64,000 nucleotides of DNA from an uncultured Chloroflexia bacterium (lineage in GTDB: Bacteria > Chloroflexota > Limnocylindria > Limnocylindrales > CSP1-4), in contig CAVPPB010000002.1 in NCBI GenBank assembly GCA_963707215.1, positions 160,001-224,000 on the forward strand, given 5' to 3'. Position numbers and translations under genes: made by a program. This document shows positions 33,406 through 50,376 of this stretch, one piece after another (position 1 is the first letter of the stretch; each line of letters begins with the position of its first letter). Below the pieces are notes generated by a model. It made no database searches. It saw only the letters and a program-made list of their open reading frames with translations, and had not been told where the DNA came from.

Positions 33406-33539
33406 CAATCGGCCGGCGGTGGCTCCTGCGCGGGACGGCACGGTGTGCCGGCTTGACTTCCCGATGGCCCGTCGCGATGGTGGCGGTTCCGGAGGACGAC
33501 GATGAATCCGGCGACACCGATGCCTGGAGCGCAGCAGCT

Positions 33540-34007
33540 ATGACCGAGGATCAACCGTCGACCGCTTCGCCCCGCCTCCCGCCCCGCTGGTTCATCCGCG
33601 CCGCCTGGGCGGTGCACCGCGCCATCTACTCGATCACCGCCGGCCGCCGCGGTCTCCGCAGGGCGACCGACGACCAGTGGGGGATGATGCGGCTCAGGAC
33701 GGTCGGGCGCCGCAGCGGCAGGGAGCGCGTCGCGATCCTCGGCTACTTCGAGGACGGCCCGAACCTGGTGACCATGGCCATGAACGGCTGGGGGGAGCCC
33801 GAGCCCGCCTGGTGGCTCAACCTCCAGGCGCATCCCGACACGGTCGTCGAGCTGAAGGACGGGCCCCGGGCTGTCTACGGCCGAGCCGCGGACGGCGAGG
33901 AGCGGGACCGGCTGTGGGCCCGCTGGGCCCATTACGACAAGGATCTCGATGCCTTCGCTGCCCGGCGGCCGGGGCAGACCGCGGTCGTGGTCCTCGAGCC
34001 GCGGTAG
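33540..34007 (+). CDS. F420H2-dependent nitroreductase/quinone reductase (Ddn family)
   Basis: LRTVGRRSG, MNGW...PAWWLNLQAHP, TAVVVLEPR. Confidence 0.85.
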   Translation: MTEDQPSTASPRLPPRWFIRAAWAVHRAIYSITAGRRGLRRATDDQWGMMRLRTVGRRSGRERVAILGYFEDGPNLVTMAMNGWGEPEPAWWLNLQAHPDTVVELKDGPRAVYGRAADGEERDRLWARWAHYDKDLDAFAARRPGQTAVVVLEPR

Positions 34008-34135: not shown

Positions 34136-34236
34136 CGCTGGGGTGGCGGGAGCGGCGGGGTGCTCCACGGCACGGCGTCCAATCGGAGCGGTCGCCCGAC
34201 TCGTGCCGGAAGCCAATGGCGAGACCGACCCCGGCG
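34136..34236 (+). ncRNA. c-di-GMP-II-like riboswitch (variant), copy 1
   Basis: P1 CGCUGGGG/CCCCGGCG; P2 GGC/GCC; P3 CGGCACG/CGUGCCG; loop UCGCC pairs with GGCGA (pseudoknot); 3' GCC-AAU-GGCGA-GACCGA-CC; abuts the GGAGGAGG RBS. Confidence 0.72.
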
Positions 34237-34250
34237 GAGGAGGAGTGCGG

Positions 34251-34592
34251 ATGATCCGCCATGTCGTTTCCAGGCTCACGGTCGCGGTCTCGGTGGCCGC
34301 CATCGTCGCGAGCCTGAGCGCTACCGCCGTCTTCGCCGGTGAGATCACCGGCAACGGCAAGAGCCTCAAGGTCGAGGACGGGGGCAAGTGGCACACGGGG
34401 CTGCACGCCCGGTCGTTCTGTGCCTTCTCCGGCCAGAACGACGAGTACCACGAGGTGAGCACCGAGTACCCGCGGGTCCAGAACTGGGGTGAGATCCCGA
34501 AGGAGTTCCGGGCCTTCCTCGCGTCGATCGGAGCCCATCCTGGCCAGGCCTGCAACCCGAACATCGGGCCGCCCCCGGAGCCAGAGGGGTAG
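34251..34592 (+). CDS. Small secreted two-Cys hypothetical protein, paralog A
   Basis: Signal peptide ending AVFA; GEITGNGK...HARSFCAFSGQ...HPGQACNP; strong RBS; paralog at 40095. Confidence 0.85.
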   Translation: MIRHVVSRLTVAVSVAAIVASLSATAVFAGEITGNGKSLKVEDGGKWHTGLHARSFCAFSGQNDEYHEVSTEYPRVQNWGEIPKEFRAFLASIGAHPGQACNPNIGPPPEPEG

Positions 34593-34617
34593 CCGACCCG
34601 GATCCGACCAGCCGCCT

Positions 34618-34648
34618 GACGGCCTCCCGGTCCATCCGGGGGGCCGTC
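34618..34648 (+). terminator. Hairpin terminator-like element
   Basis: GACGGCCTCCCGG-loop-CCGGGGGGCCGTC; conserved after paralog B. Confidence 0.7.
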
Positions 34649-34753
34649 GGCTTGTCCGTGAGGCGCGGCTGCGTCATCTGCCGGGCCGATCGGGCCGATC
34701 GCCCCTTCCGCCAGCCGAGCCGCGGAGGCACCGTCTCGGCGGAGGTCGCAGCC

Positions 34754-36307
34754 GTGCCGGACACCACTGCCGCCGGGTCATCCACCATCGCGTCCGCGGG
34801 GACCGAGTCGCCCCTCGAGACCTGGGTCGAGGAACTCGCGGGTCGTCACCCTATGGTCGGGCTCGCGGTGGGCGTCGTCCGCGACGGACGCCTCGACGCC
34901 TTCCAGGGCTACGGCCTTGCCGACATCGCATCAGGTCGGCCCGTGACCGAGGACACGGTCTTCCGGATCGCCTCGATCACCAAGACCTTCACGGCGATCG
35001 CGGTGATGCAGCTCTGGGAGCAGGGGCTGGTCGACCTCGATGCGCCCGTCAGTGAGTACCTGCGGGCCTATCGGCTGGTCCCGGCGAACGTCGGCTGGCG
35101 GCCCGCGACCGTGCGCCATCTCCTGACCCACACCGCCGGCCTGCCCGAGGTGCGCGATCCGAGGGGGGCACTCCAGCCGGACTTCGGCGAGAGCGTGCCA
35201 GCCGGACGACTGCTGCCGTCCCTGGCGGACTTCTATGGCGGCCGCCTTCGAGTGAGCGCCGAGCCGGGCACCAGGTTCGTCTACGGCAACCACTCGCCGG
35301 CGACCCTCGGCCAGCTCGTCGAGGACGTCACCGAGCTGTCGCTGGGCCGCGTCTTCCGGGAGCGGATCTTCGAGCCGCTCGGGATGATGGAGACGACGCT
35401 CGTCCGTCCGGACCGGGTTGTGTCGCGCCTGGCGACCGGGTACACGATCGGTCGCCGCGGTCCCAGGGCCGTTCCCGAGCGCGACATGGTGACGACCGGG
35501 GCCGCCTCCATCTACTCGACCCCGCGCGACATGGCCCGGTACGTGGCGGCCCTGCTCGGGGGCGGTGCCAACGAGCACGGCTCCGTGCTGCGGTCGGCCA
35601 CGTTGTCGAGCATGTTCGAGCCGCACTACCAGCCCGATCCGAGGTTGCCCGGCTTCGGCCTCGGCTTCTTCCGGACCGACCTCGCCGGCCATCGCGTGGT
35701 CCGTCACCAGGGCGTCATCCCCGGCTTCGACTCCGAGATGGCCCTGGCGCCCGACGACGGCGTCGGGCTGGTGGCCTTCGCCAACGGCGCCCGCGACGCC
35801 GCGCTCTGGCTGCCCGCCGAGGTGGCCACGCTGATGCGGCGCCTGATGGATCTCCCCGGTGACGGGATCAGCTCCGGCATCGCGCCACGCCCCGACGTCT
35901 GGGGCGACCTGCGCGGCTGGTACCGGCTGGACGCTGGCATGAGCGACGTGCGACTGCGGGCCATGATGGGTGCCGGGGTCGAGATCTTCGCCGCGGACGG
36001 CGGGATCAGGCTCCGGTTCCTGACGCCGATCCCGGCGATGTACCGCGGCTTCGCGCTCCATCCCGACGACCCGATGGATCCGACCATCCACCGGATGGAC
36101 CTGTCCGCGTTCGGCCTTGGGACGACCCGGGTCGCGTTCAGCCGCGGACCCGGCGGAGCGAGGTCGGTCGCCCTCGAACTGATGCCGCTGATCCTGCGGC
36201 GGCAGCCGTCGTGGACGAACCCACGACGGTGGGCCGCGGGTTCGCTCGCCGCTCTCGGGCTCGGTGCCGCCGCGCTCATCCTCGGCCGGCGCCGCTCGGC
36301 CCGATGA
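34754..36307 (+). CDS. Serine hydrolase (class C beta-lactamase family)
   Basis: FRIASITK (SxxK), LLTHTAG, YGN, HQG; GGAGG before GTG at 34754. Confidence 0.88.
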   Translation: MPDTTAAGSSTIASAGTESPLETWVEELAGRHPMVGLAVGVVRDGRLDAFQGYGLADIASGRPVTEDTVFRIASITKTFTAIAVMQLWEQGLVDLDAPVSEYLRAYRLVPANVGWRPATVRHLLTHTAGLPEVRDPRGALQPDFGESVPAGRLLPSLADFYGGRLRVSAEPGTRFVYGNHSPATLGQLVEDVTELSLGRVFRERIFEPLGMMETTLVRPDRVVSRLATGYTIGRRGPRAVPERDMVTTGAASIYSTPRDMARYVAALLGGGANEHGSVLRSATLSSMFEPHYQPDPRLPGFGLGFFRTDLAGHRVVRHQGVIPGFDSEMALAPDDGVGLVAFANGARDAALWLPAEVATLMRRLMDLPGDGISSGIAPRPDVWGDLRGWYRLDAGMSDVRLRAMMGAGVEIFAADGGIRLRFLTPIPAMYRGFALHPDDPMDPTIHRMDLSAFGLGTTRVAFSRGPGGARSVALELMPLILRRQPSWTNPRRWAAGSLAALGLGAAALILGRRRSAR

Positions 36308-36371
36308 TCGCCGACGTGACGGTCATCGTCCCCATTGTCCGCCTGCCCGGGTGTCGCTAGAGTCTGCGGCC

Positions 36372-37199
36372 ATGGGCAACATGACGCCCCAGGAGACGAT
36401 GCACGAGCTCCTGACGGGCCACAATCCGATGAGCACCAGGCTGCGGCGGATCTTCATGCGGGTGCCCAGCGGGCCCAACTGCAAGATGTGCGCGGCGCCG
36501 TTCGCCGGGCCCGGAGGGGCGGTCCTCCGCCACGTGGGCTTCGGTCGCTTCCCCGGCAACCCGTCGCTCTGTGGATGGTGCATCAAGGACCTTCAGAAGA
36601 TCGGGGTCCAGGGCGCGGAGATCCCGGTGAGCCTCCTGTTCGCCGACATCCGGGGGTCGACCTCGATCGGCGAGCACCTGTCGCCCACCGAGTTCCGGTC
36701 CTTCCTGGACCGCTTCTACCGGATCTCGTCGCAGGCCGTGCTCACCAATGACGGCGTGGTCGACAAGTTCGTCGGCGACGAGGTCATCGGGCTCTTCTTC
36801 GGCGGTGTCAGCGGCGATCGCCATCCGGCCGCGGCGGTCGCAGCCGGACGCGAGCTCCTCTCGCGAGCCGGCCGCCTGGACGCGACACCCAGCGGCCCGA
36901 TCCCCATCGGCGCCGCGGTGCACACCGGCCTGGCCTTCGTCGGCTCCACCGCGACCGACGACGTCGTCAACGACTTCACGGCGCTCGGGGACACCGTCAA
37001 CACGACGGCACGGCTCGCGGGCCAGGCGGCTGCCGGCGAGCTCCTCGTCTCGGTCGAGGCGGCCACGGCGGCCGGTACGGACACCGCTGGCCTGGAACGC
37101 CGCTCGGTCGAGGCCCGCGGCCGCAGCGAGCCGGTGGAGGTCGTGGCCCTGCGGATCGGTGTCGAGCCCGCCGGACCCTCCAGCGGGGGGCCCGCCTAG
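36372..37199 (+). CDS. Class III adenylate cyclase with N-terminal CxxC...CxxC domain
   Basis: CKMC...CGWC; FADIRGST, DKFVGDEV, FTALGDTVNTTARL. Confidence 0.9.
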   Translation: MGNMTPQETMHELLTGHNPMSTRLRRIFMRVPSGPNCKMCAAPFAGPGGAVLRHVGFGRFPGNPSLCGWCIKDLQKIGVQGAEIPVSLLFADIRGSTSIGEHLSPTEFRSFLDRFYRISSQAVLTNDGVVDKFVGDEVIGLFFGGVSGDRHPAAAVAAGRELLSRAGRLDATPSGPIPIGAAVHTGLAFVGSTATDDVVNDFTALGDTVNTTARLAGQAAAGELLVSVEAATAAGTDTAGLERRSVEARGRSEPVEVVALRIGVEPAGPSSGGPA

Positions 37200-37221
37200 G
37201 GACCCTCGCGGGACCGGTGCG

Positions 37222-37935
37222 TCAGTCGCCCCTGGGGTGCGCCTTCGCGATGTCGCCGATGATCGCGGCCAGCTCGTCGGGGCGCGACCACATCGGCCAG
37301 TGGCTCGTGGGCAGGTCGACCCAGGTCACGTCCCGCAGCTCGGCCAGGCCGGCGAGCCATGCCCAGTCGTGGTCCCGGGCGGCTGCCCGGATCTGCTCCG
37401 ACGGGAAACCGGTGCAGACGATCGTGCTGGGGATGTCGCAGCGGGCGTCGTCGGTCAGCTCCACGGTCTTGCGCAGGACGCCGCCCGGCACCGGGACCGC
37501 CCGTTCCCGGAACCGCTCCAGCTGCGCCTCGGTCAACCCGTCGAGGTTCTCCTCCGCCTCGATGTCGGCCCAGACCAGCGGCTTGTCGGCGTCCGTGAAG
37601 TCGGGGTCGAGCGCCCCCACACCGGGGGCGGTGTCGACGTAGGCCATGGCCGCGATCCGGTCCGGGACGCGGTCGCTGGCCGCGTACCCCGAGAAGCCGG
37701 CGGCGCTGTGGACCGCCAGGACGACGGGAGCATCGGCCGCCCGGACCGCCACGCAGATCGCCTCGACATGGTCGGCGAAGCCGATCGAGGATCGGTCGGC
37801 GTCGGCCGACTCGAGACCGGGCAGGGTGATCGCGGTCACGTCGTGGCCATCGGCACGCAGCGCGGCGGCGACCTCGTCCCAGGCCCATGCGCCGAGCCAG
37901 AAGCCGGGGACCAGGATGATCGGAGCGGGCATCAT
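37222..37935 (-). CDS. Alpha/beta hydrolase
   Basis: LVPGFWLGAWAW, VHSAAG nucleophile elbow, HWPMWS. Confidence 0.88.
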   Translation of the reverse strand: MMPAPIILVPGFWLGAWAWDEVAAALRADGHDVTAITLPGLESADADRSSIGFADHVEAICVAVRAADAPVVLAVHSAAGFSGYAASDRVPDRIAAMAYVDTAPGVGALDPDFTDADKPLVWADIEAEENLDGLTEAQLERFRERAVPVPGGVLRKTVELTDDARCDIPSTIVCTGFPSEQIRAAARDHDWAWLAGLAELRDVTWVDLPTSHWPMWSRPDELAAIIGDIAKAHPRGD

Positions 37936-39677
37936 CGGGTCGCCGTAGCGGCGGGCTCGCCTCCATCGGTGGCAAGCACCCCTGCCGCGGCGAGGTCGTC
38001 CTTCCAGCGGCTGACCATCTCCGGCGAGCTGTACGGGTTGCGGTCGAGCCATGCCTCGACGTCGACCGTCGGGAAGCGCTCCCGGATCAGCTCCGCGGTC
38101 GCTCGGGCTCGCCGGTCCAGCCCCAGCTCGACCTGGGCCGCCGCCAGCACGAGGAGCGCCTCCAGGTTGTTCGGCTGGTGCTCCAGGACCATCTCTGCCA
38201 CGCCCGCCGCCTGCTCGACCCTCCCGCCCATGTAGAGGGAGCAGGCCTTGACCGTCGGGTACCAGGGCTTGTTGACGGCGGTGAGGCGCATCGCGACGTC
38301 CGTGAGGTCGACGGCCCGCTCCCACTGGCCGAGGTACCGCCGGACGCTGCCCTCGAGGCCGAAGGTGACGTCGCAGGTGGGCCGGACGATCTCGACCGAC
38401 TCGATCATCTGCAGGGCCTGCTCGCCATGACCCTGCGACATCAGGACGGCGGCCTCGACGGTCCGGGCCATGCCCGTCGGATCGCCGACCGCGAGCCCCG
38501 CCCGAGCCTGCTCCAGCGCCGTGGCCAGCGTCGCTTCCGGATCGCTGGCCCACCCGCTGTCGGCGCCCGACCAGTTGGCGAACGCCGAGAGGACGTGCCC
38601 GTACGGCTGATCCGGATGCGAGCGGGTCACCCGGCCGAAGTGCTCGACAGCTCGCGACCACCCTTCGCGCGTCCCCGTGGTCAGCTGGTACCAGCCGAGG
38701 TAGACCTGCTCGATCGCCTCCGGATCGTCCAGGTCCGCGTACAGGCCGGCCGGCTCGCCGACGACGAGCTCGACCTCGACCGCCCGGCCGACCTCGTCGG
38801 CGAACGCATCCGAGAGCGCGAGCAGGTCGGCCACCGGAGCCGTTTGCTTGTACGACTTGACGACGTTCATGGTCGACACGTCGAAAAGGTTCGCGTAGAT
38901 CCGCACGCTTTCGCCGATCAGGTGGACCCCGGTCTCGATCATGTAGCGGGCAGCGCCCGATGCCGCCCCGCGATCTTCGGCCTTCGCGTCGATGACGGTC
39001 AGTTGCGGGATCCGGGTCAACCGATGGATCAGGTCGGTCCGCAGGACCCCGGCCACGGTCCGCACGGCCTCGTCCGGGATCTCGGCATGGATCGGCAGGA
39101 CGGCCAGCGTTGGCGCCTCGAGTGCCAGTGGACGATGCGCCGAAGCGGCTGGGTCGTCGCTCGGCAGGTCGGTGAACTCGTGGACCTCCACCTCCTCCGG
39201 GATCCCCTTGAGCCGGTGCCGGCCCGTGGGCCTGAACCGAAGGGCGGGTTCGTCCAGGGCCTGGTAGACCCGCCCGGTGACGCTGATCCCGCCGGGCTGC
39301 GCGATCGCCTGGATGCGCGCGGCGATGTTCAGGGCATCTCCGAAGTACTCGCCGCCGGAGATGGAGATCGGGCCCTGGTCCAGACCCATCCGGAAGCGGA
39401 TCTTCCGTGAGTCGGCTCGTGTCGCGTTCCTGGCCTCGATCTCGGACGTGATGGCGATCGCCGTCCGCATCGCCTCCATGGCGCTGCCGAAGACCGCCAT
39501 GAAGTTGTCCCCGACGAAGTTGACGAGCGTCCCGTCGTTCTCCGACACCGTCCGCTCGACGAGCTCCCGGTACTCGTCCATCGTCGCCGTCATCGCCTCG
39601 AGGTCATCGGCGATGAGTCGGCTGTAGCCGACCACGTCGGCGTTGAGGGCCACCATCTCGGGACGCTGCTCGGTCAA
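37932..39677 (-). CDS. Class III nucleotide cyclase with TolB-like N-terminal segment and TPR region
   Basis: NADVVGYSR, VNFVGDNF, FGDALNIAARI, LAVLP, helical TPR-like C-terminus; TTG start after AAGGAG assumed. Confidence 0.85.
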   Translation of the reverse strand: MTEQRPEMVALNADVVGYSRLIADDLEAMTATMDEYRELVERTVSENDGTLVNFVGDNFMAVFGSAMEAMRTAIAITSEIEARNATRADSRKIRFRMGLDQGPISISGGEYFGDALNIAARIQAIAQPGGISVTGRVYQALDEPALRFRPTGRHRLKGIPEEVEVHEFTDLPSDDPAASAHRPLALEAPTLAVLPIHAEIPDEAVRTVAGVLRTDLIHRLTRIPQLTVIDAKAEDRGAASGAARYMIETGVHLIGESVRIYANLFDVSTMNVVKSYKQTAPVADLLALSDAFADEVGRAVEVELVVGEPAGLYADLDDPEAIEQVYLGWYQLTTGTREGWSRAVEHFGRVTRSHPDQPYGHVLSAFANWSGADSGWASDPEATLATALEQARAGLAVGDPTGMARTVEAAVLMSQGHGEQALQMIESVEIVRPTCDVTFGLEGSVRRYLGQWERAVDLTDVAMRLTAVNKPWYPTVKACSLYMGGRVEQAAGVAEMVLEHQPNNLEALLVLAAAQVELGLDRRARATAELIRERFPTVDVEAWLDRNPYSSPEMVSRWKDDLAAAGVLATDGGEPAATATR

Positions 39678-39981
39678 GGTGCTGCTGCTCCTTCCCTCGG
39701 CTGGGTCATCCGGATCGGCAGCGGCTGCCGGTGATCGGCCGATCTTGCCGGTGATCCATGGGGGCGACCACGGGGTCGAACGTTGCCCGGATCCCCCGAA
39801 GCATCTCACGCCCTGCTACCAGGGCGCGAGCGCCCGGCCGTCGGGTGGGTCGAGGCGCCGTCACTTCTGGCTGATCGGGTGACCTCGCAGACAGGGTCCG
39901 TGGTCACCGCACGCACCAGGGTAGATGGATTTCTTAACGTGCTGGCGCTTTGCCGTCATCGAGCGCAGCATGCCCCGACGA

Positions 39982-40076
39982 TCGAGGAGGCGGGAGCATC
40001 GGGAGAGCTCCCCGGCACGGCGTCCCAGCATCGGTCGCCTGCTCGTGCCGGATGCCAATGGCGAGACCGACCTCGG
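39982..40076 (+). ncRNA. c-di-GMP-II-like riboswitch (variant), copy 2
   Basis: P1 UCGAGG/CCUCGG (compensatory changes relative to copy 1); same P2, P3, pseudoknot and GCCAAUGGCGAGACCGACC core; AAGGAGG follows. Confidence 0.72.
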
Positions 40077-40094
40077 CGAAGGAGGTTCGTGCGG

Positions 40095-40445
40095 ATGATC
40101 CGCCACGTCATGACGAGGCTCGGCCTCGCGGTCACCCTGGCGGCCGTCGTGCTGAGCCTCAGCGTCCCCGCCGTGTTCGGCGGCGAGATCACTGGGAACG
40201 GCAAGGTCCTCAAGCTCGAGGACGGCGGCAAGTGGGACACCGGGCTTCATGCTCGGTCGTTCTGCGCCTACTCGGGCCAGGAGGACGACCAGTTCCTGGC
40301 CGGGGGCTCCAAGGGAGACCCGGGCCATGCCCAGTCCTGGGGCCAGATCCCCAAGGCCGACAGGAATTTCCTGGCCACGATCGGGGCCCATCCCGGCCAG
40401 GCATGCAACCCGAACAGCGGCCCACCCCCCGAGCCTGAGGGGTAG
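40095..40445 (+). CDS. Small secreted two-Cys hypothetical protein, paralog B
   Basis: Signal peptide; GEITGNGK...HARSFCAYSGQ...HPGQACNP...PPPEPEG. Confidence 0.85.
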   Translation: MIRHVMTRLGLAVTLAAVVLSLSVPAVFGGEITGNGKVLKLEDGGKWDTGLHARSFCAYSGQEDDQFLAGGSKGDPGHAQSWGQIPKADRNFLATIGAHPGQACNPNSGPPPEPEG

Positions 40446-40466
40446 TCGACCTACCACTCGACGACC

Positions 40467-40501
40467 GACGGCCTCCCGGTCCTTCCGGGGGGCCGTTTCT
40501 T
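40467..40501 (+). terminator. Intrinsic terminator
   Basis: GACGGCCTCCCGG-loop-CCGGGGGGCCGTT followed by TCTT. Confidence 0.75.
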
Positions 40502-40523
40502 GTGGGCGTCCGGATCGCCGTCG

Positions 40524-41390
40524 CTAGGGGCTCCCGTCGACGACGAGCCGGAGGAGCTGTCGTTGCCCGGGCAACCCCTTGAGCTCGTGGACGCCGGCAT
40601 CCTGAAGTACCAGCTCCGAACCCTCCAGGAGCCCACCCGTCGTCGACGAGACGAGCACCTCGCCCGGGCCGGCCATCGCGAGCACCCGCGAGGCCGTGTG
40701 AACGGCGATCCCTCGGACGTCGTCGCCCACGAGCTCGATCTCCCCGGTGTGGAGGCCGACCCTGATCTCGAGACCGATCGCCCGGACGGCACGCGTCATC
40801 TCGGCGGCACACCGGGCGGCACGGGTCGGGCTGTCGAAGATCGCCAGGAACCCGTCACCGGTCGTCTTCACCTCGCGGCCGCGTTGGACGTTCAGCACCT
40901 CGCGAAGGCGCGCGTTGTGGGCGACCAGCAGGTCGTGCCATGCGGCATCGCCGAGTGCCTGGAGCCTGGCCGTCGAGTCGACGATGTCCGTGAACAGGAC
41001 CGTGGCGAAGGACCGCGCCCCGCTCTCGCCGAGCGCCGCGCTGAGAGCCCGGCCGCTCGCCCCCCACTCGAAGCAGACCCAGGGCTCGTCGCCGATCACC
41101 CACATGTCGTGGCCCGGCGGGATGTCGAAGACCGTCTCGGGTCCGATGTCGAGTTCCTGCCCGTCCTCCATCGCGACATGGACGACCCCCGACATCGTGT
41201 AGCCGAGATGGCGGATCTGGCAGGACGTGATCCCCATCATCGAGCCGATGTCGGTCGACCAGCGCCAGCCAGGCTCGAAGCGACAGCGGCTGACGGTCGT
41301 CTCGTCGAGGTTGACGGCCTCGAACCGCACCCTCGTCATCGCCCTGACGGCATCGGGAGCGGCGAAGGTCTTGGTCTGCAACCGGGGCAT
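40524..41390 (-). CDS. Cupin-domain class III adenylate/guanylate cyclase
   Basis: FEPGWRWS...CQIRHLGY...IPPGHDMWV (cupin); FTDIVDST, VKTTGDGF, VHTASRV, HELKG. Confidence 0.9.
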   Translation of the reverse strand: MPRLQTKTFAAPDAVRAMTRVRFEAVNLDETTVSRCRFEPGWRWSTDIGSMMGITSCQIRHLGYTMSGVVHVAMEDGQELDIGPETVFDIPPGHDMWVIGDEPWVCFEWGASGRALSAALGESGARSFATVLFTDIVDSTARLQALGDAAWHDLLVAHNARLREVLNVQRGREVKTTGDGFLAIFDSPTRAARCAAEMTRAVRAIGLEIRVGLHTGEIELVGDDVRGIAVHTASRVLAMAGPGEVLVSSTTGGLLEGSELVLQDAGVHELKGLPGQRQLLRLVVDGSP

Positions 41391-47122: not shown

Positions 47123-47548
47123 TCAGGCGGGAGGACCCGCCGGCACTGCACCGATCTGCTGCATCATCGCCAGCGCATCCATCACGCCCCAGTGCTCGTG
47201 CAGCAGGCCGTCGTCGCCGAAGCCGAAGATGTCGATGAGCTGGGCGTCGACTCGCTTGCCGGACGCGGGCATGCCCTGGAACTCGCCCTGGTGCGTGCCC
47301 GTGTACCGCACGCGGGCGACGACCTTCTGGCCGTCCGCGACGATGTCTTCCACCTTCATGTGCATGTCCGGGAAGGCCGCCCGCTGCATCCGGAAGAAGG
47401 CGAGCACCCCATCCTTGTTCGGCGCGAGGCCGGGCGTCTCCTCGTGCTCGACGAAGTCGTCGGCCAGGAGCCAGCCGAACCCGTCGATATCCCCGGCGTT
47501 GATCAGGTCGTACAGGCGTCGCGCTGTCGCCGCGTGATCGGTGGACAT
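47123..47548 (-). CDS. SnoaL-like ester cyclase
   Basis: AAFPD, GTHQGEFQGMPASGK, EHWGVMD. Confidence 0.9.
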   Translation of the reverse strand: MSTDHAATARRLYDLINAGDIDGFGWLLADDFVEHEETPGLAPNKDGVLAFFRMQRAAFPDMHMKVEDIVADGQKVVARVRYTGTHQGEFQGMPASGKRVDAQLIDIFGFGDDGLLHEHWGVMDALAMMQQIGAVPAGPPA

Positions 47549-47740
47549 CTCAGCAGCCCTTGCCCTTCCTGGGCGCAGATCGCGCCCACCCGAGCGGGCC
47601 CGGTCTCGCCACTGGCCCAGCGCGACGGTCGAGGCGACCGCGTGGGGACGCCGCGCTGGCGGGAGCTCGAGTGCCCCCGCGCCTGCCCTTCGGTCGCCGG
47701 AGTATGCGCCCGGCCCGGCATCCCGTCGCGCCCGGGATCG

Positions 47741-49509: not shown

Positions 49510-50376
49510 CTAGGCGTCCGCCCGGAGCACCGCGACGTCGACCTCGGCGGACCTGCCCCTGAGCTCGAGCCGGCGGTGCTCGAGCCCTCGATCCGGGACA
49601 TCGGCCCGCTCCAGAGCCGAGGTCGTGAGGAGGATCTCGCCCGGCCCGGCGGCCGACGCCAGGCGCGCGGCGACGTTGACCACGTCACCGAGCGCAGTGA
49701 ACTCGACGTGCTCGGCAGTCCCCACCGCTCCCACGTAGGCCACGCCCGTCGCGATGCCGGCACCGACCGGGAGCCAGGGCCCGCCAGGGTCGCCGTGGCC
49801 GGTCGCGGCGAGGAGGGCGCGAGCGGCAGCGACGGCGCGCCCAGCGTGGGCGTCCTGCGCCAGCGCCGGGATGAAGATCGCCACCACCTCGTCCCCGACG
49901 AACTTGTCGATGATGCCGTCGTGCTCGAACAGGATCCTGGTGGAGACCTTGTAGAAGCGGCTCATGAGGTGGCGGAACTCCGAGGCGGTCATCCCCTCGG
50001 CGAGGCTCGTGGACCCGCGGACATCGGCGAAGAGGAGCGAGCAGTCGATCTCCGCGCCGCCGTCGTGCTGCTCCATCGCGATGAAGCACTGCTTGCAGTA
50101 GTTCGGGTTGCGCTCCCAGGGGCTCCGGCCGAGCGGCCGCATGAAGGGAGCCACCGGCCCGGCGAACGGCGCGGCGCAGAGGTGGCAGCGGTGCGTGGCG
50201 GGCAGCCGTTGGAGCCAGCTTCGCCAGGTCCGGTACCGGGGGTCGGTTCCCTCGAGGACCCCCTTCCACATGGCGTCGAGGCGCAGATCGGCGGGTCCAG
50301 GCGCGACCGACCCGGGGTCGTCTTCTGAAGGCGATCCCGTCGGGGGATCCGTGGGACGCGGGTCTGGGGACGTCAT
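49510..50376 (-). CDS. Class III adenylate cyclase with N-terminal CxxC...CxxC domain (paralog of 36372)
   Basis: CHLCAAPF...NPNYCKQC; FADVRGST, DKFVGDEV, FTALGDVVNVAARL. Confidence 0.9.
   Translation of the reverse strand: MTSPDPRPTDPPTGSPSEDDPGSVAPGPADLRLDAMWKGVLEGTDPRYRTWRSWLQRLPATHRCHLCAAPFAGPVAPFMRPLGRSPWERNPNYCKQCFIAMEQHDGGAEIDCSLLFADVRGSTSLAEGMTASEFRHLMSRFYKVSTRILFEHDGIIDKFVGDEVVAIFIPALAQDAHAGRAVAAARALLAATGHGDPGGPWLPVGAGIATGVAYVGAVGTAEHVEFTALGDVVNVAARLASAAGPGEILLTTSALERADVPDRGLEHRRLELRGRSAEVDVAVLRADA

Follow-up and report, generated by a model that had tools for sequence, protein, structure and literature searches.

Putative riboswitch leaders of the c-di-GMP-II-GAG type, with a hairpin at the kink-turn position, precede a family of small secreted proteins in Chloroflexota

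Contig CAVPPB010000002.1 of an uncultured Chloroflexia bacterium (assembly GCA_963707215.1) carries, in the 64,000-nucleotide (nt) stretch from position 160,001 to 224,000 that is called here the window, two related cassettes, A (34136-34648, + strand) and B (39982-40503, + strand), each made of a leader, a Shine-Dalgarno sequence (SD), an open reading frame (ORF) and a GC hairpin, which align over about 600 nt with a mean column identity of 85%. A preliminary description of this DNA had placed at these sites two leaders of about 100 nt, each followed by a secreted ORF of about 115 amino acids (aa), and had taken the leaders for variants of the class II riboswitches for cyclic di-guanosine monophosphate (c-di-GMP); coordinates and ORFs were confirmed, and the strings CGGUCGCC and GCCAAUGGCGAGACCGACC, which it had reported as shared, do occur in both leaders. 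The leaders are considered here as putative aptamers homologous to the c-di-GMP-II-GAG class, in which a hairpin, P2a, stands in the place of the kink-turn. The elements of the two cassettes are the following, helices being named P and scores being those of the Rfam model RF03169 and of R1, a covariance model built from the 29-sequence leader alignment described below.

34136-34236, + strand: aptamer A, assigned from RF03169 (35.4 bits), R1 (100.1 bits) and pair counts
34136-34143, + strand: 5' strand of P1 of aptamer A, CGCUGGGG, pairing with CCCCGGCG at 34229-34236
34145-34147, + strand: P2 of aptamer A, GGC, pairing with GCC at 34212-34214
34148-34166, + strand: inserted hairpin P2a of aptamer A (GGGAGC...GCUCC)
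34168-34175, + strand: P3 of aptamer A, pairing with 34200-34208
34189-34196, + strand: loop CGGUCGCC of aptamer A, complement of GGCG/ACCG within 34218-34227
34237-34245, + strand: SD of cassette A, GAGGAGGAG, directly 3' of the P1 3' strand, assigned from sequence and local fold
34251-34592, + strand: ORF A, 113 aa, with a predicted signal peptide and two invariant cysteines
34618-34648, + strand: 3' hairpin of cassette A, 13 base pairs (bp), GC-rich, with a weak U tract
39982-40076, + strand: aptamer B, with the architecture of A, assigned from RF03169 (35.6 bits), R1 (99.3 bits) and pair counts
39982-39987, + strand: P1 of aptamer B, pairing with 40071-40076
39989-39991, + strand: P2 of aptamer B, pairing with 40054-40056
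39992-40012, + strand: P2a of aptamer B
40014-40021, + strand: P3 of aptamer B, pairing with 40042-40050
40032-40039, + strand: pseudoknot loop of aptamer B, with its 3' partner within 40060-40069
40079-40085, + strand: SD of cassette B, AAGGAGG, paired in the local fold with the P1 3' strand ACCUC
40095-40445, + strand: ORF B, 116 aa, paralogue of ORF A
40467-40503, + strand: intrinsic-terminator-like hairpin of cassette B with its U tract, the hairpin proper at 40467-40497 being followed by UUUCUUGUGG

Each cassette may constitute a self-contained transcription unit of leader, ORF and terminator hairpin. Both end in the same 13-bp GC hairpin, GACGGCCUCCCGG-loop-CCGGGGGGCCGU(C/U), with a folding energy of -39.9 kcal/mol in A (z-score of -3.24 against shuffled sequences) and of -35.7 kcal/mol in B (z-score of -3.80). 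The common terminator of the preliminary description thus stands as far as the hairpin is concerned, whereas a good U tract is present in B only: a terminator scan accepted the U-rich tail of B, and the hairpin of A is followed by GGCUUGUCC. In about 23 of the 26 homologues examined (two homologues without an ORF call and one locus that was too short were left out of the count) the stop codon is followed by a strong hairpin, whose sequence varies, and the monocistronic unit therefore appears to be conserved. A sigma-70 promoter scan found no promoter. As a side observation, a mini-hairpin of 5 bp, GCGGAUGAUCCGC, surrounds the start codon in both cassettes (34247-34259; 40091-40103), and in the homologous locus L020 it reads UCGGAUGAUCCGA, with both sides changed.

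A default Rfam scan of the whole window at gathering thresholds found nothing, since the scores of the leaders lie under the cut-off of 40 bits for RF03169 (c-di-GMP-II-GAG), and the class appears in E-value mode only. In that mode no Rfam family scores better than RF03169 on either leader, and its alignments with them run over the full model, with E about 2e-5 for the 301 nt searched; one match to another family of its clan scored lower and was omitted by clan competition, and the canonical c-di-GMP-II family (RF01786, cut-off 53.5 bits) falls below the GAG family on A and B. The RF03169 alignments agree perfectly in the P3 stem, the loop CGGUCGCC and the tail UGGCGAGACCGACC, and contain many non-canonical pairs in P1 and P2, two helices that the model mis-registers. 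At the junction, A, B and a third copy in the window, C, read UGGCGAGACCG, against GUGCAACCG in the genome's canonical copy, and the junction and loop nucleotides of the canonical family are absent from A and B. The low scores of A and B are due to P2a, which replaces the kink-turn and leaves the true P1 outside it, where the Rfam model has none. Because the leaders fail two tests of membership, the Rfam cut-off and the kink-turn, they are filed as a structural variant: they appear to descend from the c-di-GMP-II-GAG class and to work like it, and are not regarded as ordinary members.

The proposed helices were examined in an alignment of A, B and 27 homologous loci (29 sequences), from which L029 (identical to L011) and L044 (nearly identical to L021) had been dropped. 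With P1 in its outer register, 92.5% of the 862 cells are paired and 14 of the 30 pairs have changes on both sides; none of 500 shuffled controls reached the observed values on any of five measures, and slid registers gave 32-43% of paired cells. Pairs with changes on both sides are distributed over P2a (3 of 5), P3 (7 of 8), P1 (3 of 6) and P2 (1), and the paired cells amount to 83% in P1, 98% in P2 and 91% in P3. Alignment columns 17 and 122, which hold G-C in A and A-U in B, form AU in 17 sequences, GU in seven and GC in five, and are unpaired in none. P1, P2a and P3 therefore covary in the leaders of homologous genes. An inner, Rfam-like register of P1 was rejected in favour of the outer one, as it paired 79% of the cells and contained no pair changed on both sides.

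The homologous loci were drawn from species-representative genomes (n = 80). In 29 of them GGCGAGACCG was found 26-38 nt ahead of the start of the gene, a distance that grows to about 83-124 nt where the tblastn match sets in further inside the gene, and R1 recovered the same 29 leaders with 75.5-110.6 bits, the next best match (29.6 bits) lying away from the gene; the linkage between leader and gene family is conserved. By their labels, 28 of these 29 loci belong to Chloroflexota (Limnocylindrales, Limnocylindria, 'Chloroflexia' and one 'Anaerolinea sp.') and one to Polarisedimenticolia. Homologues from Actinomycetota and Gammaproteobacteria have no leader, and an Rfam gathering scan of 20 of the leaderless loci found no riboswitch upstream of the gene, the matches being transfer RNAs and, in L026, SAM_alpha downstream. 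The genome that holds the window (G000, 3.26 Mb, 72% G+C) was compared with 24 relatives (G001-G024), and eight of these 25 genomes have R1 matches at E <= 1e-6. Ordinary GAG copies score at most 35.5 bits with R1, and the third copy of the window lies above them:

47588-47698, - strand: copy C, third hairpin-type GAG aptamer (R1 44.3 bits; partial RF03169 match of 24.2 bits)
47126-47548, - strand: SnoaL-like gene (polyketide-cyclase fold, Pfam) downstream of copy C

The weaker R1 matches, copy C included, belong to another lineage with a hairpin, of the form GGGAGGC-A-[hairpin]-A-CCAGCGCG, which is found upstream of SnoaL-like genes (L114 and L118 among the relatives) and of a gene for a 119-aa protein (L113, L117). 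In the relatives, several RF03169 matches longer than 100 nt and under the cut-off are hairpin-bearing copies, and the Rfam threshold thus misses the subtype systematically.

The leaders of the A/B type follow a common plan, whose 5' part reads 5'-nGAGG-U-GGC-[GGGAGC...loop...GUUCC]-A-CGGCACGG...CGGUCGCC and which continues as ...CGUGCCG-nAn-GCC-A(A/G)U-GGCGAGACCGA-CCUCn-3'. GAGG/CCUC corresponds to P1 and GGC/GCC to P2, matching the GGG-A-GGC of the ordinary copies, which read ...GCGGGAGGC-NNN-GA-CGCACGG...CCGUGCC-GA-GCC-ACUGGCGAGACCGACCCGC; the bracketed P2a occupies the position that the 3-nt bulge and GA of the kink-turn hold in these copies, and the Rfam model takes the G-run of its loop for the 5' strand of P1. 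Among the ordinary GAG copies of the genome, the two sides of the kink-turn signature are found in 13 of 16 (GGC-NNN-GA) and in 16 of 16 (GA-GC(C/U)-A, with one GAGCUA). The positional homology of hairpin and kink-turn is fixed by the SnoaL-linked copies, since their hairpin follows directly after an ordinary GGGAGGC. P2a thus replaces the kink-turn between P2 and P3, which would give a three-way junction. The RF03169 result, with the GAG junction nucleotides and the loop/tail complement, bears out the GAG-type assignment that the preliminary description had favoured, though with scores under the cut-off, and the compensatory change it had seen in P1, as well as the covariation it expected upstream of homologues, was found again at columns 17/122 and in the 29 leaders. 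Its structural sketch has to be corrected in one point, the kink-turn, at whose place it had overlooked the hairpin. A further GAG-like aptamer under the threshold, G000:C3:396183-396265 (- strand, 31.8 bits), also lacks the kink-turn signature and lies upstream of a gene for a 504-aa CWB2-repeat protein.

The products of ORFs A and B are 67-69% identical, and cleavage of the predicted signal peptide of A is expected after VFA. A word-indexed search gave 251 relatives at E <= 0.001; the family comprises at least 150 clusters at 50% identity (46 at E <= 1e-10), and none of its members has a name beyond 'hypothetical' or 'secreted protein'. In an alignment of 20 sequences the invariant or nearly invariant segments are AGEITGNGK, right after the predicted signal peptide, LHARSxCAxSGQ, WGQIPK and PGxACNP, the last of which contains the second of the two invariant cysteines. 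The protein had no Pfam match above cut-off and no NCBIfam match, and in the ESM Atlas it fell in unnamed clusters only. An AlphaFold2 model from 83 sequences (predicted local distance difference test, pLDDT, 74; predicted template modelling score, pTM, 0.38) consists of a signal helix and a mature region that is largely irregular, and a Foldseek search of the PDB with this model gave no match. The family thus remains, as had been supposed from the window alone, an uncharacterised family of predicted secreted proteins. In the metagenome homologue P0086 the gene call runs upstream through the riboswitch (...HWANGETDL...), so that GCCAAUGGCGAGACCGAC of the RNA has been translated as ANGETD, and this extension shows how gene callers treat such leaders.

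Elsewhere in G000 the class is represented by 22 RF03169 matches, 17 of them over the cut-off; one of the 17 is a canonical c-di-GMP-II aptamer outside the window (G000:C2:20184-20267, - strand, RF01786 59.6 bits, junction GUGCAACCG), so that the ordinary GAG aptamers number 16. In relatives from the same family RF03169 has up to 25 matches; 19 of the 24 genomes of that family contain at least one, and none of the 16 small genomes (about 1 Mb) of the sister family contains any. Many of the genes behind GAG aptamers encode signal-peptide proteins without a family, others PKD and CWB2 surface proteins, a DUF6326 membrane protein, an ATC_hydrolase-like protein, an alpha/beta hydrolase, a methyltransferase, two SRPBCC and two SnoaL-like proteins; this target list, heavy in secreted proteins, resembles c-di-GMP regulons and does not identify the signal. 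In several ordinary copies (C3:1265462, C1:740186, C3:396183, C3:1273547) a box GCGUCCC(A/G)GGAGG recurs between aptamer and start codon, which may be part of the expression platform; GGCGUCCC recurs in the P3 loops of both A and B.

The coexistence in one genome of a canonical c-di-GMP-II aptamer and about 20 GAG-type aptamers points to a different ligand, or to a very different affinity, for the latter. The founding paper of the class, by Weinberg and colleagues in PNAS in 2017, reportedly states in its abstract that such variants 'might recognize different bacterial signaling molecules'. An alternative is that the GAG aptamers still sense c-di-GMP, the GAG nucleotides and the hairpin tuning affinity or kinetics, and that the cassettes belong to an ordinary c-di-GMP regulon. 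The fold inherited from c-di-GMP-II would fit this, as would the abundance of secreted or cell-surface proteins (PKD, CWB2 and signal-peptide proteins) among the GAG-controlled genes, canonical c-di-GMP-II riboswitches being likewise placed upstream of surface-anchor proteins in PMC9481103. GGDEF genes are likewise present in all 16 family genomes searched, which, as the domain is in every one of them, makes its phyletic profile uninformative. However, the canonical copy kept beside some 20 GAG-type copies is more easily explained by two ligands, and the nucleotides that differ fall within the junction and triplex region, the ligand site of class II (for the triple helix, PMC9495366); sensing of c-di-GMP itself is accordingly judged unlikely. 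A much bolder proposal is that the GAG class, the hairpin subtype included, senses a signalling nucleotide other than c-di-GMP and that this signal governs, in Limnocylindria-like Chloroflexota, a regulon of about 20 proteins, most of them secreted or at the surface, the signal being made, in its boldest form, by class III cyclases; it is put forward as a long shot.

Class III nucleotide cyclases come into consideration through the genes around the cassettes, where a stretch of 14 kb holds four cyclase-domain genes interspersed with the three hairpin-type aptamers:

33453-34004: F420H2-dependent quinone reductase-like gene
34652-36304: beta-lactamase-family gene
36264-37196, + strand: class III cyclase-domain gene
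about 37222-37920, - strand: alpha/beta hydrolase gene
37932-39806, - strand: class III cyclase-domain gene with TPR
40524-41387, - strand: class III cyclase-domain gene with a cupin domain
about 49597-50046, - strand: class III cyclase-domain gene near copy C

The ligand might then be the product of such an enzyme, namely cyclic AMP, cyclic GMP or a rarer cyclic nucleotide, and the cassettes would lie amid the genes that make it. Three Guanylate_cyc genes are found less than 3 kb from A and B and the fourth 2 kb from copy C. Over the whole of G000, which has 25 cyclase matches, a cyclase is found no more than 5 kb from four of the 12 GAG-RNA units, where 1.0 would be expected (permutation p = 0.014), the GGDEF counterpart being 0 of 12; in G023 the figure is four of 11 units within 10 kb (p about 0.005). 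In addition, a methyltransferase gene and one for a large class III cyclase-domain protein apparently form an operon behind an ordinary GAG RNA (G000:C1:738860-740275, - strand), and orthologues of the cupin-cyclase (53-56% identity) flank three of the 29 riboswitch-bearing loci. The phyletic distribution speaks against the proposal: G015, a 95% complete genome, lacks class III cyclases in spite of its two GAG RNAs, G005 shows a single partial cyclase match beside 18 RNAs, and G003 has 30 cyclases and no RNA. Moreover, the co-localisation is not significant in G014, in G005, or in G023 at 5 kb, a cyclase lies within 3 kb at only six of the 80 homologous loci, and the aptamer descends from a binder of dinucleotides. 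A cyclase product as the ligand is therefore kept only as a lead of low probability.

The favoured reading takes the leader for a riboswitch aptamer that acts in cis and is a homologue of c-di-GMP-II-GAG, with a ligand-driven translational ON switch as the likeliest mechanism; we infer ligand binding, the ON direction and the translational level, and give the reading as a whole a probability of about 75%. In the mechanism envisaged, a small nucleotide-derived ligand, related to c-di-GMP and probably not identical with it, would bind the aptamer and stabilise P1. The 3' strand of P1, ACCUC, is also complementary to the SD situated 6-15 nt downstream, and its locking into P1 would free the SD and switch on translation of the small secreted protein with two cysteines. 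Because the aptamer is separated from the start codon by 14-18 nt only, with no terminator between aptamer and ORF, control is most likely exerted on translation or on mRNA stability. In most leaders the P1 3' strand is ACCUC, the complement of the SD GGAGGU, which the P1 5' strand GAGGU mimics, and the local minimum free energy fold from the P1 3' strand to the start codon pairs that strand with the SD in 24 of 29 leaders, a count made without a shuffle control; four of the 24 pairings, that of A included, are weak (-4.1 kcal/mol or weaker), and that of B has -6.0 kcal/mol. Pairing of the P1 3' strand with the G-rich loop of P2a is likewise possible (79% of cells), and it may be speculated that this loop acts as a third competitor for the strand.

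A leader that binds a protein, or forms a constitutive structural element, and thereby affects mRNA stability or translation would also fit part of these data. A GGA-binding regulator could act on the P2a loop, which by eye is G-rich and SD-like in 26 of 29 leaders, and on the SD; the small hairpin around the start codon in A and B and the lack of a ligand for the class in the literature searched point the same way. Such a role is nevertheless rated most improbable, as the binding core of a proven ligand-sensing fold is near-invariant across distant genomes and many unrelated downstream genes, a pattern typical of sensors of metabolites or signals.

Several observations weigh against the interpretation of the leaders as ligand-driven ON switches. 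As regards the class, A and B score under the gathering threshold of RF03169 (35 against 40 bits), the kink-turn signature, a consensus feature of the class, is absent on both sides from A, B and C, and no ligand has been assigned to c-di-GMP-II-GAG in the literature, as far as the searches reach. All 29 rows contain the pseudoknot complement (99.6% of cells paired) without any variation, and since the rows were selected by that motif, the pseudoknot has no support from covariation; 51 of the 80 homologous genes have no leader. As regards the switch, the anti-SD count lacks its shuffle control, the P1 3' strand of A is CCCC and pairs weakly with the SD (-4.1 kcal/mol), and in whole-leader partition functions enforcement of the aptamer raised the mean unpaired probability of the SD from 0.35 to 0.48, with gains above 0.1 in only 11 of 28 leaders, and left SD accessibility unchanged in A (0.68 and 0.68) and B (0.21 and 0.20). 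On account of this whole-leader result, the ON direction is held to be only slightly better than an even bet. On the side of the transcription unit, metatranscriptome contigs without mismatch (two libraries of one study) cover 34247-34397, 34383-34592 and 34473-34623, that is ORF A; they start at 34247 and leave the aptamer uncovered, DNA carry-over is possible, and they give neither RNA ends nor a level. No contig covered cassette B, the aptamers or the genes nearby, a negative that carries no weight with this kind of data.

The GAG class and its orphan status were already known, the class having a proven ligand-binding fold with altered contact nucleotides. What looks new is a subtype with a hairpin for the kink-turn, missed by Rfam-based annotation; useful handles are offered by this subtype, by its conserved target among secreted proteins and by the very high number of copies. 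The lineage uses the class heavily, one genome of 3.3 Mb having about 20 copies and relatives as many as 25, beside a canonical aptamer, which makes it a good system in which to find the ligand, and the conserved target is a family of small secreted two-cysteine proteins without annotation. Knowledge of the ligand would establish a signalling pathway in an abundant and little-known phylum-level group of soils and sediments. Should the class simply sense c-di-GMP, the cassettes would be an ordinary extension of a known regulon; should class III cyclases make the signal, this would be the first natural riboswitch tied to that enzyme family.

Compared with the RF03169 class, the leaders share P1, P2 (GGC/GCC), P3, the loop CGGUCGCC, the tail UGGCGAGACCGACC with its GAG, and the site directly 5' of an ORF. 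They differ in that the kink-turn of the class, a 3-nt bulge with tandem GA, gives way to a hairpin of 5-6 bp with a G-rich loop and, probably, a three-way junction, that P1 is GAGG/CCUC instead of GCGGG/CCCGC, and that the base after GCCA is A or G in leaders of the A/B type and C in the class. Substitutions of a kink-turn by a junction (k-junction) occur in other riboswitches, where a helix is added at the bulge of the kink-turn and the sharp bend is kept by a three-way junction; to our knowledge no such swap has been reported in c-di-GMP-II-type aptamers, although no literature search was aimed at the three-way-junction form. With the canonical c-di-GMP-II aptamers (RF01786) the leaders have in common the overall pseudoknotted fold and a P1 that would control the expression platform, and differ from them in the junction (GCA there, GAG here) and in the loop (UGGGCAC there, CGGUCGCC here); an association with surface or secreted proteins is common to the canonical (PMC9481103) and GAG classes. 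The riboswitches for cyclic AMP-GMP (c-AMP-GMP; GEMM-Ib) differ in their parent fold, which is that of class I (c-di-GMP-I), and in that their ligand is proven; the likeness is that there, according to PMC5473149, a few changed nucleotides in a c-di-GMP aptamer can retarget it to another signalling dinucleotide, and that such variants remain hidden within the parent class.

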